64,000 bases of DNA, taken from a virus. Below the pieces are notes generated by a model that saw nothing but the letters and a program-made list of their open reading frames with translations, was not told where the DNA came from and made no database searches. Location: the IMG/VR virus record IMGVR_UViG_3300021185_002414; one strand, 5' to 3'. Shown piece after piece: positions 4,924 through 60,591 of this stretch; positions within the stretch are counted from its first letter, which is position 1, and every line of letters begins with the position of its first letter. The position numbers and the translations under genes are program-made.

Positions 4924-6155
4924 TATCCAGTATTTCCTTTTCCTGTTGTAAATGATTCTTGTACACTACTATTTCCTAACCAAGGCTGATGCTCTGGCAC
5001 ACGACTTGCGATACTAGAAGTTATATTACTGTTTACAGTCTGTGCTTGTACTTCAGGTTTAGATGCAGAGCTTGCAGGAGGACCGTTTAAGTCAATACGC
5101 CCACCAGTTGCTTTTATATAACCGCTTGATGCATTTATTTCATATTGTGATGTTTCGCTTCTGATTGCAAGGGCACTGTGTATATCTATACTACTAGCAC
5201 TAGATTGTATTTTTATACCTTCATTTCCTGTACTTTTAATATTAACACCTTGGTCAGCTTGCATATTGATATGTCCTTTTGCATGTACATTATAATCGCC
5301 TTCAGTACTGATACTAACACCAGCCTTACTGTACATATCTATTCTGCCTTCACTGTCTATTTCTATCCAAGAGCTACCATTTTGGTTTATTATATTAATA
5401 AAACCATGTGTATCGTCTAAAAGTATTTGAGCACCTTGTTTTGTTTTTATTCTTATATTTCTACTAGGTCCATCTTCTTGACCGTCATCTAATGATATTA
5501 CATGCCCTTCTCTGGTTGTCATACCAAACACACGGCTAGGAGTTTCTCGTCTAGCACTACTCATACTATGTCCTCTTACATAATCTTCGTCAGTACCTTT
5601 CTCTGTTAAAACATCCATTGCTTCGTTATCTGAAGGCCTGGTGTCATTATCATTTCTATCATACGGATTCTTTTCACTTGATGGAGACAATATAGTTTTT
5701 TCTTCTTTATATGCTTGGCTACTTGCGTTGCCTCCCATCATAGCATTTCTATCTTTAGATATAAGACTTCCTATATACACACCTTGTTCCATACCAGCAG
5801 TGAATAATACAACTACATTTGTGTTTATTGCTGGAGGTTGTGACCACATTCCGTAGCTCTTAGGGCTACCATTTCCTGTTTGTCCTTCTTCTTCTCCAAA
5901 CTTCTTTTCGTCTTCACTACTAGCAACAACGTCAGTGTGGCCACCAAATGGAGTACACAATAGACATATTCTTTCTGTTGCTTTGCCACTAAAATCACTA
6001 ATACGAACAGTAACTCTACCAGTATGCAAACTATCATTATTTTTTATCACTTGTCCAATATACATCCCACTGAGGTCGTTAATATTGTATTTGCTATCCT
6101 GTTTGCCTCTTCCAGCAACATTGTAGCCTTGTGTTTTGATACTTGATCCTGACAT
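4923..6155 (-). CDS. Baseplate central spike, gp5/VgrG-like (OB-fold plus beta-helix)
   Basis: YIGQVIKNNDSLHTGRVTVRI, YGMWSQPPAINTNVVVLF and repeated short beta strands (GHVISLDD, GAQILLDD, SWIEIDSEGRIDMYS). Confidence 0.8.
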   Translation of the reverse strand: MSGSSIKTQGYNVAGRGKQDSKYNINDLSGMYIGQVIKNNDSLHTGRVTVRISDFSGKATERICLLCTPFGGHTDVVASSEDEKKFGEEEGQTGNGSPKSYGMWSQPPAINTNVVVLFTAGMEQGVYIGSLISKDRNAMMGGNASSQAYKEEKTILSPSSEKNPYDRNDNDTRPSDNEAMDVLTEKGTDEDYVRGHSMSSARRETPSRVFGMTTREGHVISLDDGQEDGPSRNIRIKTKQGAQILLDDTHGFINIINQNGSSWIEIDSEGRIDMYSKAGVSISTEGDYNVHAKGHINMQADQGVNIKSTGNEGIKIQSSASSIDIHSALAIRSETSQYEINASSGYIKATGGRIDLNGPPASSASKPEVQAQTVNSNITSSIASRVPEHQPWLGNSSVQESFTTGKGNTG

Positions 6156-9686: not shown

Positions 9687-10592
9687 ATGGCTAGAGCCCC
9701 TAAACAATTTTATTTAACAAACAAAGACTTATTGAAAGAAATACACAAATCTAAAATGTCCTATTGTTGGGTCAAAGATGAAGAAAGCGAAGGCTTATTT
9801 GATGCAATTGTAGAGAGTTTAGATGATATTGATGACGAAATCATTGATCTTGCTAGACAAACACGTGCAACTAGGATGCAACGCTTTGCTCATGAGGCAG
9901 AAGTTAAACGGTGGGAAAAGGGATTAACAGGCAAAAAGACAAAGCCTAAAGCTGCAGATTTTGCAGTAGATGTAGATACAATTCCAAAAACAGATGTGGT
10001 TATTCGTGTAATGACTTTTGATCATGTTCCTAAAGAGAACAGAAAAAATAAACCAAAAACAGAAGCAGATTATCATGCTAAGTGTAATTTTCCTCCTTTT
10101 AAACATTATAATCTTAAAGAAGATAATTCCTGGGAAGAGGTTGCACGAAGTCATTGGGAAGGTAGTTTAGGTAATGGAGCATTTAGTGTTACACATGGTA
10201 CTACCAATAATCGTTTAGCAAGTATGTATATGAAATTGTGTGAACGATATAGTATGCGTGGTAACTGGCGTGGCTATACATATGTAGATGAGATGCGTGG
10301 ACAGGCGTTATTGCAGTTGACACAAATAGGTTTACAATTTAATGAAGCAAAGAGTGCTAATCCGTTTGCATACTATACTGCTGCAATCAATAATAGTTTT
10401 ACAAGAGTACTTAATTTAGAAAAACGTAGCCAGGAAATTAGAGATGACTTATTAGAAGAAGAAGGTCTAAATCCAAGTAGCACAAGATTGTTTAATGCAG
10501 AATGGGAAAGTGCTCAAGAAATAATCAACAAAAAAACAAAAGAATCGAAAGAATCTGAATCCACAACATCAAAGCAAGAAGCAGGAGAATAA
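9687..10592 (+). CDS. gp55: Late-transcription sigma factor, T4 gp55-like
   Basis: NWRGYTYVDEMRGQALLQL...FNEAKSANPFAYYTAAINNSFTRVLNLEK; canonical gp55-gp47-gp46 order. Confidence 0.85.
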   Translation: MARAPKQFYLTNKDLLKEIHKSKMSYCWVKDEESEGLFDAIVESLDDIDDEIIDLARQTRATRMQRFAHEAEVKRWEKGLTGKKTKPKAADFAVDVDTIPKTDVVIRVMTFDHVPKENRKNKPKTEADYHAKCNFPPFKHYNLKEDNSWEEVARSHWEGSLGNGAFSVTHGTTNNRLASMYMKLCERYSMRGNWRGYTYVDEMRGQALLQLTQIGLQFNEAKSANPFAYYTAAINNSFTRVLNLEKRSQEIRDDLLEEEGLNPSSTRLFNAEWESAQEIINKKTKESKESESTTSKQEAGE

Positions 10593-14100: not shown

Positions 14101-14128
14101 CTAACACAACTCTAATACAATTCTAATA

Positions 14129-14460
14129 AAGGCATCATGGCTTTGATTGGTCGGGATTAGCTCGACTCACCTTGAGGTTACGTTAACTCGTGACCAGAAA
14201 CTGGTGTGCCTTGGTCAATGCGCTGGTTTGACCAACCAAAAACGAGTAAGCTCTCCTGTCCAATTGGAACTTACGGATAGCTATATGTTGTTTGTTGTAA
14301 CATATGGTGTTTCTGCGTTATTAAGCATTATGTAATAGAGGTACAGCATAACCGCCTCCCCTGAGCGTTAATTTAGGTTTAATACAACAATGTGAGTGAG
14401 GCTGACGGTGATGTCAGGTTTTTTTTCATGCTTGGCCTTCTTCAGGCTAAGTGTGAATAA
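14129..14460 (+). ncRNA. Candidate structured non-coding RNA (unknown family)
   Basis: Intergenic, GC-richer than flanks, many stems: 14129-35/14206-12, 14150-55/14161-66, 14193-14205, 14211-18/14228-35, 14246-50/14270-74, 14281-89/14299-307, 14402-06/14413-17, 14431-38/14444-51. Boundaries and strand are approximate. Confidence 0.5.
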
Positions 14461-14481
14461 AACTTCATGTGATATAGTATC

Positions 14482-14489
14482 ATAAATAT
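14482..14489 (+). promoter_or_regulatory. Late promoter motif CATAAATA
   Basis: nnTAAATA motif upstream of the 14637 ORF; leader contains hairpins at 14545-14575 and 14577-14593. Confidence 0.45.
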
Positions 14490-14636
14490 TAATATAGAAA
14501 AAATTCTTAATGATAATTATAATTTTCGATATTTCCTAAAGTAACAGCGAATAAAGCGATAGCTTTATGAAGCTGAAAATGCCGTAGGCATTTAATAGGA
14601 TATATAATATAATCTTAGATATATGGATACCTGTGA

Positions 14637-27902: not shown

Positions 27903-28862
27903 ATGGAACTACTCACAGTATGGATGCTGGTGGGCTTTTTATTTGCAGCCTATGCAGTTATCGCTAATGATTCTGTTCAAACATTGGGAACATGGATCGC
28001 ATCAAACAACGAAAAATTTCATTGGAGAACAATGTGGACAGCCGCTTCGGCTGTTTTATTATATACACTATGGTATGGGTGGTATATGAACGGAGGCGAT
28101 ATTAGTTATGGTCGTCTAAACAAAATTCCCTTTCAGGAAATACAATGGTACCATGCAACAGCACCTGCATTGCTTTTACTTTTAACAAGAATAGGTGTAC
28201 CAGTAAGTACAAGTTTTCTTGTACTAAGTGCATTTGCAAGCACGTTTGTATTAGAAAAAATGCTACTAAAATCAATGATGGGTTATGCAGTAGCCGCAGT
28301 AGCCGCTTATGCAATATGGATTGTAGTAAGTAAACTATTAGATGAAGCAAAGCCAGTTAAAGAAAAACACAAACGCTGGTGGCGCATTGGACAATGGATA
28401 ACAACAGGGTTGTTGTGGTTTACTTGGTTGTCACACGATATGGCAAATATTGCTGTATTTTTACCACGTCAAATTCCTTGGGATTTAATGGTATTAGTAA
28501 GTTTAATATTTGTTGGCGGACTTTATTTTATGTTTCGCGAAGGTGGAGGCAAAATACAAAATATTGTCATTGAAAAACACAATACAAGATATGTAAGAAG
28601 TGCTACAATAATTGATTTAGTATATTGGTTAATACTTTGGTTCTTTAAAGAGCTAAACGACATTCCAATGTCAACAACATGGGTGTTTGTAGGTTTACTA
28701 TGTGGTAGAGAACTAGCAATGGCAACAATGACAGGCAAGCACAAGTTTAAAACAGTGTTTCCACTTGTTACACGTGACTTCTTTAAAATGATGATTGGAC
28801 TAGCCGCATCAGTTGGCGTAGTATTAATGATTCATTACGTCATAATACCAAACGGATTGTAA
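27903..28862 (+). CDS. Polytopic membrane protein, PiT/PHO4-like anion (phosphate/sulfate) permease
   Basis: About 9-10 hydrophobic segments; inverted-repeat motifs IANDSVQTLG / SHDMANIA and PVSTS / PMSTT like PiT signatures. Confidence 0.6.
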   Translation: MELLTVWMLVGFLFAAYAVIANDSVQTLGTWIASNNEKFHWRTMWTAASAVLLYTLWYGWYMNGGDISYGRLNKIPFQEIQWYHATAPALLLLLTRIGVPVSTSFLVLSAFASTFVLEKMLLKSMMGYAVAAVAAYAIWIVVSKLLDEAKPVKEKHKRWWRIGQWITTGLLWFTWLSHDMANIAVFLPRQIPWDLMVLVSLIFVGGLYFMFREGGGKIQNIVIEKHNTRYVRSATIIDLVYWLILWFFKELNDIPMSTTWVFVGLLCGRELAMATMTGKHKFKTVFPLVTRDFFKMMIGLAASVGVVLMIHYVIIPNGL

Positions 28863-28865
28863 TAG

Positions 28866-29038
28866 GATAAATAAAACTGTAGCACAGAGTTGTGCTACAG
28901 CATCGAAGATGTATCGCACTGGTATAACAGAGCTGTTATATGACTGAGTGCGATTCATTTATTTACCTGATAAGTAATAAATGATTTTTTCAAGATTCAC
29001 ATAAGTGAATTATATTTAAGTCAAATGGAGAATTAATC
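28866..29038 (+). promoter_or_regulatory. Late promoter motif GATAAATA plus multi-stem 5' leader
   Basis: Stems 28877-86/28891-900 (10 bp perfect), 28913-20/28947-54 enclosing 28923-29/28934-40, 28956-66/28974-83, 28995-29000/29005-10. Confidence 0.55.
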
Positions 29039-29740
29039 ATGACAACATCAACACAATTTGTAGCACAACTACAAAAAGATAACGAAGCACTTTTCACAGC
29101 ATCAAAAATGAATGTGAAAGCATATTTTGAGTCAAAAAACAACTCAATGGAAGAGCTAGTAGAGCACTTCACAGGTCGTATGGTAAACGAAAGAATGAAC
29201 ATGGTAGAGATTTCTCGCCAAGTTGCTTCAATGCCAGCAGACGCGGACCCAATTGAACTACAAAACCTATCAAAGCAAGCGCACGATGAGGCAGTTCACT
29301 TCCGTATGGTAAAAGAGTGCATCGAAAAAATCACAGGCGAAACACTAGACGTAGACGCAGCAATCGCAGCAGAGGCCGCAAAGCCACAAGCTAAAGGTGC
29401 TGATCTACTAGAAGCGTACGAAGCATCAAATGATGAAGCAGCTCTAGCTGTATATCAAATCGTTGCTGAAGGACGTGCGGCAGCAGTATGGGCACAAATG
29501 GCAGAATCAATTGAAGACGAATTCATTGCAAAGTCATATGCAAAAATTGCTAAAGACGAGGGTTTCCACTCAACTATTGGTGCAATGAAACTAGAAGCAA
29601 TTGCAACAACACCAGAAGTACAAGCACACGTACTAGACATCGTTGACGGTATGAGAAAAGACCTATACAACGTTTCATGCTTAAACACAGTTAAAGCAGA
29701 AGGTTCAGACGAGCTAGTAAACGAAGCTTACGGTTGGTAA
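29039..29740 (+). CDS. Ferritin-like diiron-carboxylate protein
   Basis: E...DEAVH...E...DEGFH ligand pattern in a four-helix bundle. Confidence 0.8.
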   Translation: MTTSTQFVAQLQKDNEALFTASKMNVKAYFESKNNSMEELVEHFTGRMVNERMNMVEISRQVASMPADADPIELQNLSKQAHDEAVHFRMVKECIEKITGETLDVDAAIAAEAAKPQAKGADLLEAYEASNDEAALAVYQIVAEGRAAAVWAQMAESIEDEFIAKSYAKIAKDEGFHSTIGAMKLEAIATTPEVQAHVLDIVDGMRKDLYNVSCLNTVKAEGSDELVNEAYGW

Positions 29741-29755
29741 GAGAACATATTGTAA

Positions 29756-30313
29756 ATGAATATTGGGTTAACGCAACGCATATTCCATTACAATGATTTT
29801 GCGTATGATTGTTTAGAACATGGTTGGTACAACCTACTAAGCGATCATACGCTTTTTAATATAGCAAACAATCCAGAACAAGATTTTTCTAATATTATCA
29901 AAGATTTAGACATGGTAATCTTTACAGGTGGCGATGCAAGTAGCCCCAGGATAATAACAGAAATAAGACTACTTACTGAGTGTTATAAACAGAAAAAACC
30001 TGTACTAGGAGTTTGCCACGGAGCATTTTTAATTAATCAACTTGAAGAAGGTGTTAATATAGAATGTGAAAATCATTATAAAACGGAACATGAAGTTACA
30101 ATGGATAATAAATCTGTTGTAGTAAACAGCTATCATCAAAATAAAATTTTAAAATTAGCAGAGGGATTTTCGCCTACTGCTATTACAAAAGAAGGTGACA
30201 TTGAAGCATTCAAACATAATATTAATAAAGTATGGGGTATAGTTTGGCATCCTGAGCGAATGGAAAATCCCGTTCTGCCAAACGATCTAGAAAGATTTAT
30301 TAATAACATTTAA
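29756..30313 (+). CDS. Class I glutamine amidotransferase (peptidase C26/PuuD-like)
   Basis: FTGGD, nucleophile elbow GVCHG, VNSYH, WHPE catalytic His-Glu. Confidence 0.9.
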   Translation: MNIGLTQRIFHYNDFAYDCLEHGWYNLLSDHTLFNIANNPEQDFSNIIKDLDMVIFTGGDASSPRIITEIRLLTECYKQKKPVLGVCHGAFLINQLEEGVNIECENHYKTEHEVTMDNKSVVVNSYHQNKILKLAEGFSPTAITKEGDIEAFKHNINKVWGIVWHPERMENPVLPNDLERFINNI

Positions 30314-30334
30314 TTTAAATAATATTAAGATTTA

Positions 30335-30371
30335 GTTAAATAGTAGCATAGGACTTTTAAGTTCTATGCTA
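30335..30371 (+). promoter_or_regulatory. Late promoter motif GTTAAATA plus 11-bp leader hairpin
   Basis: TAAATA at 30337-42; stem 30344-54/30361-71. Confidence 0.5.
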
Positions 30372-30395
30372 TTTCTTTTCATAAGGGAGAATAAA

Positions 30396-31964
30396 ATGAG
30401 TTCAATAGAAGAAAATAATCAAAAAAATGGCTTTAATCAAAAGCGTATAACTAACACACTTTCAAGAAGTAAAGAATTTGAAACTGGACAAGTTAAAAAT
30501 CCAGACATGGTTGCGAATAATACTCCAGCTATGTTTAGTAAAACTTTACAGCATGATGCAACCACATTGCTTCCTGATGCAACAGAAACACAAAAATTAA
30601 AAACAGCAATGGAAAGCGGTTCTAAAGTTGATTTAGAACAAGTTAGCCTTTCCCCTAATGCAACACGTAAACTAGCTAATCCTCTTGGTGCTTTCATTGT
30701 AGAAAGTACAGGACAAGATGCTTACGGTATGACAATGAAAGCATCACCAGCACTTGATAGTGAAGAAGCTGCCGGCGAAATGGTAGAAGTTTGGGAAATG
30801 AATATACAGAGAGATACTTCATTTGATCATCTTAACTTTGGTGCCGCAGATACAGATGCTGATCGTGCAGTAACAAACTTAAATGCGTTTGGTTCTGAAT
30901 ACAAAGGACCTGTAAACGAAAGTAGTAGTACATTAACAAGAGCTGAATTATTCCGTGGCGTGGCGCCTGGTTGTCTTACTGGGCCATATATCTCACAGTT
31001 TTTAATTCATGACTTTCAATTAGGTGCTCATGAGATCGAACAAAAATATAATTACCATACTGGTGTATATGGAATTACAAAAAGTAATTTTAAAGACATT
31101 GCAGACGGAACTGTTCCTGTAGCACAAGCCGCAAATGGTTCTGATCAGTATATATGGAATGGACGTTCACTTGGTACAATTGTACACAGTGATTTTGTTT
31201 ATCAACATTTTTATTATGCAGCATCAATGTTAGCACAAGGTGGCACAAGACACACAGCATTTAGTGATGTAGATCCATCTAATAGCGGTGCATTCTTAAC
31301 ACAAGGTGGGCCAGCATTTGTTGCTCCAGCAGTAGCGGCAGTTTCAGCAAATGCGTTATCAGCGGCATGGGTACAAAAGTGGAGACAACAGTTAAGGCTA
31401 CGACCAGAAACAATGGCTGCACGTGTAGTAACTGGCATTGCAGGAGATAGTCCTGTATATTATGATTCATCATTAACTACAAATGCACAATCAACAATTA
31501 ATGCAGTAAAAGCATTTAACGTAGCAAATGGTGGAGATAATGAACCTTTCTTACCATTATTGTATGCAGAAGGATCACCAACACACCCAGCTTATCCAGC
31601 AGGCCATGCTGTGATCGCAGGTGCATGTGCAACAATACTAAAACTAATGTATGCAGATACAAACTGGTCATCAATGGGTAATTATTCAAGTGTAATGCAT
31701 TCTACAAACGGTACAGCTCGTGTAGCATATACTCGTAGTGACTCTGGAGACTTAACAGTTCATGGAGAACTAAACAAACTAGCGGCAAACATTGCTATTG
31801 GTCGTAATATTGCAGGTGTGCATTATCGTGTAGATGGTGATGAAGGAATGATGTTAGGACAAAAAGTAGCTATACAGTACTTCAAAGATTATATAACACG
31901 TCAAATAGATGCTCGTGGTGATATTACAATTGTTGGATTTGATGGAGTTTCATTCACAGTATAA
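30396..31964 (+). CDS. Vanadium-dependent haloperoxidase (bromoperoxidase type, PAP2 superfamily)
   Basis: Start at ATG 30396 (GGAG RBS), 522 aa. All three vanadate-site motifs present: QKWRQQLRLRPE, EGSPTHPAYPAGHAVIAGAC, GELNKLAANIAIGRNIAGVHY. Confidence 0.88.
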   Translation: MSSIEENNQKNGFNQKRITNTLSRSKEFETGQVKNPDMVANNTPAMFSKTLQHDATTLLPDATETQKLKTAMESGSKVDLEQVSLSPNATRKLANPLGAFIVESTGQDAYGMTMKASPALDSEEAAGEMVEVWEMNIQRDTSFDHLNFGAADTDADRAVTNLNAFGSEYKGPVNESSSTLTRAELFRGVAPGCLTGPYISQFLIHDFQLGAHEIEQKYNYHTGVYGITKSNFKDIADGTVPVAQAANGSDQYIWNGRSLGTIVHSDFVYQHFYYAASMLAQGGTRHTAFSDVDPSNSGAFLTQGGPAFVAPAVAAVSANALSAAWVQKWRQQLRLRPETMAARVVTGIAGDSPVYYDSSLTTNAQSTINAVKAFNVANGGDNEPFLPLLYAEGSPTHPAYPAGHAVIAGACATILKLMYADTNWSSMGNYSSVMHSTNGTARVAYTRSDSGDLTVHGELNKLAANIAIGRNIAGVHYRVDGDEGMMLGQKVAIQYFKDYITRQIDARGDITIVGFDGVSFTV

Positions 31965-32003
31965 AAAAAATTAAAAAAAGGTGAATTAATTTGCCTTTTT
32001 CTC

Positions 32004-32032
32004 TTGACATTTGTGTCTAAAAGTACTATATT
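32004..32032 (+). promoter_or_regulatory. sigma70-type promoter with no protein gene before the next terminator
   Basis: TTGACA-17 nt-TATATT. Confidence 0.8.
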
Positions 32033-32038
32033 ATATAC

Positions 32039-32277
32039 ATAGGTTAGGAGATATCCTAAGTTAGATAGTGCAAGGAATGGCGGTCCGTAGAGGTCGTAAC
32101 TTGGTTCATAGCTGTGGTGGCAATGCAAGAGCGTAGAGATACGAAGTTGTATTTTTAGACGTAACTGTTTAATATGAAGTTCCCTGATTTGAGCGTGGCT
32201 CTACAAAGGGGTTGTTGGTATTCACAGAGTCCAACCTATCACTTTAATAACAGGCTCGCATTATGCGGGCCTTTTTT
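32039..32277 (+). ncRNA. Candidate stand-alone ~200-240 nt non-coding RNA, rod-shaped (6S-like)
   Basis: Predicted TSS 32039 pairs with 32230-39; nested stems 32087-92/32199-204, 32105-10/32173-78, 32135-42/32149-56; own promoter and terminator. Confidence 0.6.
32252..32277 (+). terminator. Intrinsic terminator
   Basis: AGGCTCGCA-TTA-TGCGGGCCT followed by TTTTT. Confidence 0.85.
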
Positions 32278-32347
32278 ATTTATTATATACAACGTAAATT
32301 TTGCTAAATACATATAGAAAAAAAAACTCTTGAAGGATTAGAAAAAA

Positions 32348-32941
32348 ATGGCATCATATATAAAACCTGACGATGGTCGGCTAGTAATTAATAGTACCTT
32401 AAATTTTGCTGATTTAGAAGCTATTGTTGATACAGAATCAGCCTTACTTGTAAAAGGTGGTGCATACATAAACAATGATTTATATATTGGAGGTACACTA
32501 ATTGCAAATGGTGATATTATCACTATTGGTAACACTGGCGGATCTTTAACTTTAAACTCTAATATTTCAAGTGATGTAATTCCAACCACAACAAATAATT
32601 ACAATTTAGGTAGCAATAATAAACAATGGGATAAAATTTACGCTAATAAAATCCTTATGACACAAATTACCTCTAACGCAGGAACAGAAGTGTCTGTAGA
32701 TCATGGAGTTAGCTATATAACAAGCGCAACAAATGTTTCACCTACACTTCCAGATGGAGAATTAGGTCAACTTGTTACGATTGTGGCAACAGAAGCACTT
32801 AACAATCCTGTTACACTTAGCCCTGATAATGGCTTAGGGTATACTACTGTAACTTTTAATAACTTAGGAGATAGTATCTATTTAATGTGGACGCCTAATG
32901 GTTGGGCAATTATATCGCATTTTAGAACAAGTATAACCTAA
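32348..32941 (+). CDS. Putative virion structural protein
   Basis: 197 aa, beta-rich; SSDVIPTTTNNYNLGSNNKQW fibre-type motif; GCTAAATA late motif at 32303-10. Confidence 0.65.
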   Translation: MASYIKPDDGRLVINSTLNFADLEAIVDTESALLVKGGAYINNDLYIGGTLIANGDIITIGNTGGSLTLNSNISSDVIPTTTNNYNLGSNNKQWDKIYANKILMTQITSNAGTEVSVDHGVSYITSATNVSPTLPDGELGQLVTIVATEALNNPVTLSPDNGLGYTTVTFNNLGDSIYLMWTPNGWAIISHFRTSIT

Positions 32942-49382: not shown

Positions 49383-49514
49383 ATTTTTTTACATAAACAA
49401 TGTAACAATAGAAAACGTATAACTTAACTTTTAACTTATGTTAATAAATAGTATGGAGTAAACAGGTGTTTGCTTTTTAACGTTAAATAACAAATCACTT
49501 CAAGGAGAATATTA

Positions 49515-49739
49515 ATGGCATTACCAGCAACCGGCGCATATATCACAATGGGAGAAGTTCGTAACTATTTTGGTCTAAGCGGGTCAATTTGCATGTCTAC
49601 ATTAGGAAATTTTATTTCACCATCAGTAACATCAAATATTAAGCTATCGGACACTTTCGGCGGATGGCAGAATCCAAACCAATATGGTACAGATTCTGGA
49701 GTACATCCAGATAACGACGAATATACAAGTCCTCCATAG
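49515..49739 (+). CDS. Small fibre-tip/accessory protein
   Basis: MALPATGAYITMGEVRNYFG; AAGGAG RBS; AATAAATA motif at 49443-50. Confidence 0.65.
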   Translation: MALPATGAYITMGEVRNYFGLSGSICMSTLGNFISPSVTSNIKLSDTFGGWQNPNQYGTDSGVHPDNDEYTSPP

Positions 49740-49777
49740 GATAAGTAATTATTATAGAGACAATGTTAAGAATCATC

Positions 49778-49805
49778 TTGACATTGTCTCATTTTCTTAT
49801 ATAAT
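49778..49805 (+). promoter_or_regulatory. sigma70-type promoter overlapped by an inverted repeat
   Basis: TTGACA-16 nt-TATAAT; inverted repeat 49757-66/49781-90. Confidence 0.6.
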
Positions 49806-49850
49806 CATCTTATATAATCAACACAATGTAAACTCACACAGGAGATAACT

Positions 49851-56830: not shown

Positions 56831-56859
56831 TTGACAACCAATACCTTTTGCTTTATATT
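56831..56859 (+). promoter_or_regulatory. sigma70-type early promoter
   Basis: TTGACA-17 nt-TATATT. Confidence 0.8.
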
Positions 56860-57333: not shown

Positions 57334-57335
57334 TT

Positions 57336-57548
57336 ATGGAAGTAGGTATTTTAAATAAAACAGTACAAAATATTGCGGTAGTTGTATGTAGTTTTGTAAT
57401 ACTTGGTATGGTTGCGTTCAGCTTTCATACAATTATTAATATGCCACATGTTAATTGGGACATACAAGGAAATTGTATAGAAGTTTTTAGTCCTGACCCA
57501 ACACATAGTTGTCAAAACCTTCCACGCAAATACACCAGCAACGGATAA
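57336..57548 (+). CDS. Small membrane-anchored hypothetical protein
   Basis: One hydrophobic helix followed by two Cys. Confidence 0.6.
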   Translation: MEVGILNKTVQNIAVVVCSFVILGMVAFSFHTIINMPHVNWDIQGNCIEVFSPDPTHSCQNLPRKYTSNG

Positions 57549-57552
57549 TATT

Positions 57553-57837
57553 GTGATATTAGATCAATATGCGGCTGAACTGTTTGCCAAAAATCAAAAC
57601 ATGATGGTTCCATATTATCTTATGGCATCATATGCATATTATAAAGAAGATGACCCAATTTTTAGTGATTCCTTTTTTGATGAAATGGGCAAGACTATGA
57701 TACAAATTTGGGATGATATAGAACATTTTCATAAGCATCTTATAAGTAAGGACGACCTAGTTGCAGGTTCATATTTGGGAGATTACCCAGAGCGTGTAAA
57801 GGGTGGGTTGGAAAGTTTAAGAAAAGAAAAGGCTTGA
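57553..57837 (+). CDS. Stand-alone NAD-dependent DNA ligase domain Ia-like protein
   Basis: SYAYYKEDDPIFSDSFFD matches the LigA domain Ia YY..D.P..SD..YD motif; no KxDG adenylation motif; GTG start. Confidence 0.65.
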   Translation: MILDQYAAELFAKNQNMMVPYYLMASYAYYKEDDPIFSDSFFDEMGKTMIQIWDDIEHFHKHLISKDDLVAGSYLGDYPERVKGGLESLRKEKA

Positions 57838-57862
57838 CATACTGTATTTTAGGTAATAGTAT
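57834..57862 (+). promoter_or_regulatory. sigma70-type early promoter
   Basis: TTGACA-17 nt-TAGTAT. Confidence 0.7.
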
Positions 57863-57888
57863 GGCAATATAACAGATAGGAGTTAGTT

Positions 57889-60563: not shown

Positions 60564-60591
60564 TTGACAATCGTATATAATCGTATATAAT
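60564..60591 (+). promoter_or_regulatory. sigma70-type promoter containing a tandem TCGTATATAA repeat
   Basis: TTGACA-16 nt-TATAAT; 10-bp direct repeat at 60571-90. Confidence 0.6.

Follow-up and report, generated by a model that had tools for sequence, protein, structure and literature searches.

The window, by which we mean the whole stretch of 64,000 nucleotides analysed here, belongs to a marine T4-like giant phage whose genome size, ~370 kb, is the figure implied by the CheckV completeness of related contigs. Four extra genes (27903-31964) separate its major capsid gene from an intergenic region carrying, in this order, a sigma70-type promoter, a structured RNA, an intrinsic terminator and a late-promoter-like box, and the next gene follows (Table 1). 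In 18 other loci no such genes intervene, the RNA coming straight after a major capsid gene at least 74% identical to gp23 of the window. Three more intergenic near-consensus sigma70-type promoters stand before small genes (49778-49805, 56831-56859 and 60564-60591), and T4-type late-promoter boxes (TATAAATA) precede other late genes of the window. Knowing that the promoter of the RNA is of the type found at these three other genes, and that late genes carry the other type, the RNA appears to be an early-type unit placed inside a late structural region. The late sigma factor gp55, which the sequence-only reading had attributed to this phage, was not found among the eight small ORFs examined. 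The window also contains ORF-free gaps of 469 nt (49383-49850), 536 nt (14101-14636) and 556 nt (57334-57888).

Table 1. Features of the RNA locus (positions in the window; all on the plus strand).
Feature	Position	Details
Sigma70-type promoter	32004..32032 (+)	TTGACA 32004-09, 17-nt spacer, TATATT 32027-32
manA-type structured RNA core	32039..32245 (+)	Likely start A32039; Rfam match 32044-32245; covariation-supported multi-branched fold
P1 hairpin	32044..32059 (+)	32044-49/32054-59, loop GAUA; 5/6 pairs change on both sides
Closing helix, 5' strand GAUAG	32064..32068 (+)	Partner CUAUC 32236-32240; invariant in clade
P2 hairpin	32081..32096 (+)	32081-85/32092-96, loop CGUAGA; 4/5 pairs change on both sides
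GUAGAG, P2 loop	32087..32092 (+)	Complementary to CUCUAC 32199-32204; candidate pseudoknot or intermolecular contact
Three-hairpin domain	32106..32177 (+)	Closed by 32106-09/32174-77; compensatory changes in every helix
First hairpin of the domain	32111-12/20-21 (+)	GUGGUG loop
Middle hairpin of the domain	32122-28/47-53 and 32132-35/40-43 (+)	GAGA tetraloop
Third hairpin of the domain	32156-60/67-71 (+)	GUAACU loop
P4	32181..32212 (+)	32181-85/32208-12; encloses hairpin 32191-94/32198-201
P5 hairpin and closing helix, 3' strand	32214..32240 (+)	P5 32214-18/32231-35; 3' strand 32236-40; invariant in clade
Intrinsic terminator	32252..32278 (+)	9-bp G+C-rich stem 32252-32272, T-run (six T) 32273-78
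Late-promoter-like box CTAAATA	32304..32310 (+)	One mismatch from ATAAATA; ATAAATA at matching place in related loci
Next gene, 197 aa, structural-module family	32348..32941 (+)	Begins 105 nt after RNA core

The promoter matches at 11 of 12 positions and has the top sigma70-type score within the surrounding 7 kb, in agreement with the sequence-only reading, which had also placed the start of transcription at about 32039; A32039, located 7 nt past the -10 box, is indeed the likely start. Among the related contigs, 25 of the 26 distinct upstream regions retain TTGAC(A/T/G), a spacer of 16-17 nt and TATA(T/G)T, followed by 6 nt to the RNA start. The hexamers and their spacing are constant across 20 different spacer sequences; hence, it is the promoter elements that are conserved and not the surrounding DNA. 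The intrinsic terminator noticed earlier was also recovered. It starts ~12 nt after the closing helix of the RNA core, and its stem has a folding energy of -12.5 kcal/mol, holding it open costing 12.9 kcal/mol. A strong terminator occurs 29-116 nt past the RNA core in all nine downstream arrangements examined, most of which continue with a late promoter, and the conserved block of the related loci ends with ...CCUAUCA, the sequence beyond being unrelated between loci. Together with the lack of a conserved ORF (see below), this own promoter and terminator uphold the view of a stand-alone non-coding RNA. A metagenome scan returned 43 contigs, all long and DNA-like and none transcript-sized, and thus brought no expression evidence.

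No family reached its Rfam gathering threshold anywhere in the window. In E-value mode, the manA motif (RF01745) was the sole family with E<0.05 over the 64 kb: it matches positions 32044-32245 along the entire model (1-192 of 192), with E 1.4e-8 over 64 kb and a score of 45.8 bits that falls short of the gathering cut-off of 55.2 bits. The related loci score 40.6-49.7 bits, none of the 15 reaching this cut-off, and the most divergent allele (contigs L001 and L010) was undetected by the Rfam manA model at E<0.01. All 12 manA helices are present; nine show a two-sided change in one pair or more, and three are invariant in the clade, one of these being the closing helix, which differs from canonical manA by two compensated pairs. 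The conserved unpaired nucleotides of the manA core are present too, with the exception of the ACCA of one loop, which reads AACU in the window RNA. Judging from these sequence comparisons, the window RNA is a divergent, Rfam-subthreshold relative of the catalogued manA motif, and not the new sRNA family that had been kept as a fallback. The clade model that we built (R1) found no second copy of the RNA in the window, a match at 10190-10340 (E 0.28) being treated as noise. R1 did not match HTVC008M, P-SSM2, Syn9, S-SZBM1, P-RSM6 or the loci with canonical manA, which indicates that it is too narrow to bridge the clade to canonical manA. A blastn search of the region against cultured phages gave no match.

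The same RNA was found on ~75 viral and metagenome contigs, as 39 distinct copies. A 20-mer of its last hairpin is found, letter for letter, in 31 IMG/VR contigs and in 43 from metagenomes, of which one measures 292 kb. It has no match in 185,579 prokaryote genomes (species), and therefore offers no clue to a host or a prophage. Scanning viral contigs by k-mer two more times yielded just two truncated copies (L044 and L048) and otherwise chance matches. One related phage contig (L002, 12888-13275) bears a permuted tmRNA gene of the two-piece, alphaproteobacterial type (118 bits), which may hint at the host.

With 17 distinct copies aligned by MAFFT, the 54 pairs of the fold are formed in 97.4% of the cells and 17 of them are changed on both sides, as compared with 6.8 in shuffles and 0-3 in slid controls. 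When the 39 distinct copies were aligned to R1, 22 of the 54 pairs were changed on both sides, in an alignment that leans towards the model to which it was fitted and covers a narrow clade (at least about 78% identity). RNAalifold recovered the same architecture de novo from the unfitted alignment. These data support, through covariation, a manA-type multi-branched fold. The nearest viral record (L001, from G001) shares with the window a promoter, terminator and spacer that are ~100% identical, as is the final 55-nt stretch of the RNA; its RNA body (window 32040-32190), by contrast, has ~45 substitutions, mostly compensated. This divergent allele is found again in L010, between different flanks. 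Such a combination of near-identical flanks with a diverged body found elsewhere suggests that recombination within conserved ends exchanges RNA alleles.

The loops and stems vary in different ways among the copies. The P1 loop alternates between GAUA and GACG, like the Rfam consensus, and the P2 loop CGUAGA is essentially invariant. In P4, compensation occurs at 32182:32211 and 32184:32209, and U185/G208 switch jointly to G/A in nine copies. Regarding the stems proposed from the sequence alone, 32105-10/32173-78 covaries and is a real junction helix, whereas 32135-42/32149-56 competes with two better-supported hairpins. The third one, which joins the GUAGAG of the P2 loop to CUCUAC, would form a pseudoknot with this loop and share nucleotides with the 3' arm of the inner P4 hairpin. 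The two hexamers hardly vary among the 34 distinct full-length copies, so that covariation speaks neither for nor against their pairing. The columns of a candidate GUG/CAC tertiary pairing are likewise invariant among the copies. Two other tertiary pairings of the GUAACU loop, with the GUGGUG loop or with the 32059-63 linker, were rejected, being contradicted by uncompensated variation.

The manA motif was described by Weinberg et al. 2010 (PMC2864571), who rated it a probable riboswitch, and Rfam classes RF01745 as cis-regulatory. Similarly to the window RNA, canonical manA occurs in marine T4-like phages and has a dedicated promoter, TTGACA-N17-(T/C)ATAAT, that starts transcription at the 5' end of the RNA. 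Both RNAs have the same order of helices: a 5' hairpin with a GA-rich tetraloop, the long-range closing helix, P2, the three-hairpin domain, P4 with its inner hairpin, and P5. They share unpaired nucleotides (GUG, GAAU, UAA and the GUGGUG loop) and a GGUAU...UCC hairpin; the middle hairpin is capped by a GNRA tetraloop (GAAA or GCAA in canonical manA, GAGA in the window RNA), and the P5 of the cyanophages P-RSM6 and P-SSM2, the last hairpin, is nearly identical in sequence to that of the window RNA. The differences are as follows: the score is 188 bits for the canonical copy of P-RSM6 and 182 bits for that of P-SSM2, as against 45.8 bits for the window RNA; the closing helix is GGGAG/CUCCC in canonical manA and GAUAG/CUAUC here; the middle hairpin is ~20 nt longer in the window RNA; one loop reads ACCA in the former and GUAACU in the latter; and the inner P4 hairpin of the window RNA has a 3-nt loop, unlike canonical manA. 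The two also differ in their surroundings. Canonical manA, known here from cultured cyanophages, ends 16-28 nt before the start codon of purL or of a transaldolase gene, whereas the window RNA, from a ~370-kb giant phage, is followed by a terminator, with at least 105 nt to the next gene.

Several observations were made on the phages used for comparison. P-RSM6 has, ~400 nt upstream of its canonical manA and on the same strand, a match to the Glutamine-II riboswitch (L038, 2092-2144; 33.1 bits, at the cut-off). In two cyanophage loci (L039, 1455-1500; L038, 1680-1725, minus strand), the -35 box of the manA promoter is located inside an apparent terminator hairpin of the upstream gene (GGAGGGG-TTGACA-CCCTCC-T run), in its loop or stem. 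The Pelagibacter phage HTVC008M has a weak full-length manA match of 25.9 bits (L040 1501-1687, that is 5037-5223). The match overlaps gp008, annotated as a 56-aa product and located immediately before the ssDNA-binding protein gene; this 56-aa ORF may be an RNA instead. As for other RNAs of this kind, GOLLD and ROOL are stand-alone structured phage RNAs that occur near tRNA genes; they are far larger than the window RNA and unrelated to it in sequence, and the Rfam search of the 64-kb window gave no match to either of them.

What follows the RNA varies between loci. Many related loci have an ATAAATA late-promoter box after the terminator of the RNA, and in several of them this box is followed by a freshwater-2 leader (RF02980) that includes the Shine-Dalgarno sequence and the ATG of the next gene. 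Such leaders (51-74 bits) are found just past the terminator and late box, as the 5' leader of the next gene, in L007 (2036-2120), L016 (765-849), L025 (5006-5090), L026 (4879-4961) and L029 (1438-1521); L031 has the motif twice, further downstream of the RNA (1626-1692 and 2182-2247). It is worth adding that all six are marine giant-phage contigs. The downstream gene sets differ between loci and form several unrelated sets. tRNA genes occur as well, same-strand arrays of which flank the manA-type RNA on both sides in L009 (8953-10777) and lie just downstream of it in L013 (3388-3541).

We weighed three other accounts of the locus. That the product would be a small protein, encoded by a 22-codon frame (32068-32136) or a 47-codon frame (32174-32317), is highly improbable, and the earlier statement that the region holds no credible ORF stands, as neither frame is conserved as coding. 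Although 29 of the 34 distinct copies keep the 22-codon frame open, its changes are non-synonymous and coincide with the paired, compensating changes of the stems; moreover, at least two variants have lost its start codon, a GTG that lacks a Shine-Dalgarno sequence. As for the 47-codon frame, at least six of the 34 copies carry a frameshift in it, and it extends into non-conserved sequence. We give just as little credence to the proposal that the RNA is a mimic of 6S RNA, i.e., a rod that sequesters the host sigma70 RNA polymerase. Like 6S RNA, it is a small RNA of similar length (~200 nt) made from a sigma70-type promoter, presumably early, and the phage uses T4-type late promoters. The search of positions 31900-32400 (501 nt) against Rfam nevertheless returned 22 matches at E<=10, none of them to 6S. 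Both the consensus fold and the minimum-free-energy fold of 32039-32277 (z = -2.8, more stable than shuffles) are multi-branched instead of rod-like, with no large central, open-promoter-like bubble flanked by long helices. The terminal helix that was to close the rod (32039-49/32230-39) is paired in 74.7% of the cells over 17 homologues, with six of its ten pairs broken and none compensated, and its 5' strand sits instead in the covarying local P1 hairpin.

The third account, a riboswitch or attenuator leader in which the manA-type domain, on sensing a ligand or factor, would set the level of read-through from the terminator into the structural genes downstream, deserves more attention, even though we regard it as quite unlikely. 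It agrees with the cis-regulatory class and the riboswitch rating given to manA, with the 5'-UTR position of canonical manA, with the classic order of promoter, aptamer-like domain, terminator and gene, and with the short distance between the closing helix and the terminator. On the other hand, no mutually exclusive anti-terminator or conserved competitor was found across nine loci, in which keeping the terminator open costs 11-17 kcal/mol; the 5' arms of the terminators pair weakly with the RNA body (-5 to -11 kcal/mol), through different segments at each locus; and the RNA is conserved from locus to locus, its terminators and spacers being unrelated in sequence. The downstream genes, which in places include tRNA genes, belong to no consistent class. 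The window RNA is not part of a 5' UTR that leads straight into a coding gene: the next ATG is reached only after a terminator, 105 nt and a late-promoter-like box. This intervening second promoter, joined in several loci by a second leader, the freshwater-2 motif, makes a classic riboswitch unlikely for the subgroup of the window. Regulated read-through of the terminator could still occur, and the location of canonical manA so close to a start codon makes a cis role possible for the family.

We favour, as the probable explanation, a self-contained RNA gene that has a sigma70 start at about A32039, a divergent manA core and an intrinsic terminator, and that acts in trans. The host sigma70 RNA polymerase would most likely start at about A32039 from the promoter and stop at the terminator, yielding an RNA of ~240 nt made early in infection, the first 207 nt of which fold into the multi-helix manA core. 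This RNA would then work in trans as a folded particle, without switching the downstream gene.

By analogy with what is reported for other members of the family, the most likely physical behaviour of such a particle would be homo-oligomerisation via loop-loop and GNRA contacts. Ren et al. 2026 (preprint, bioRxiv 10.64898/2026.07.01.735769) report, from cryo-EM, that manA RNAs of less than 200 nt assemble in vitro into RNA-only cages, closed particles of 8, 10 or 60 subunits held by kissing loops and GNRA-receptor interactions. The window RNA belongs to the same family and size class (below ~210 nt), and likewise offers several hairpin loops and a GNRA tetraloop for contacts; the assembly was seen in vitro only, with other manA sequences. 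Self-assembly of the window RNA is thus possible. A more specific proposal, which we put forward tentatively as conceivable though not likely, is that the manA of this clade is an early trans-acting RNA, with no gene-switching role, that self-assembles in the cell into an RNA-only oligomer or cage, the interfaces being GUAGAG/CUCUAC or the GNRA loops.

Since its description in 2010, the manA motif has stayed an orphan "riboswitch candidate", and the present cut-off of Rfam misses the whole subgroup described here. The promoter of these RNAs and, in the arrangements examined, their terminator, along with the extra promoter and leader that precede the next gene in many relatives, argue that some manA-type RNAs at least are independent genes rather than 5'-UTR switches. 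Within the family, this subgroup is evidence against a purely cis-regulatory role of manA. It also provides a compact, well-delimited and naturally varied set of sequences for tests of assembly and function. If the proposed early, self-assembling, trans-acting RNA is true, a motif that has been an orphan for 16 years would gain a non-riboswitch function.
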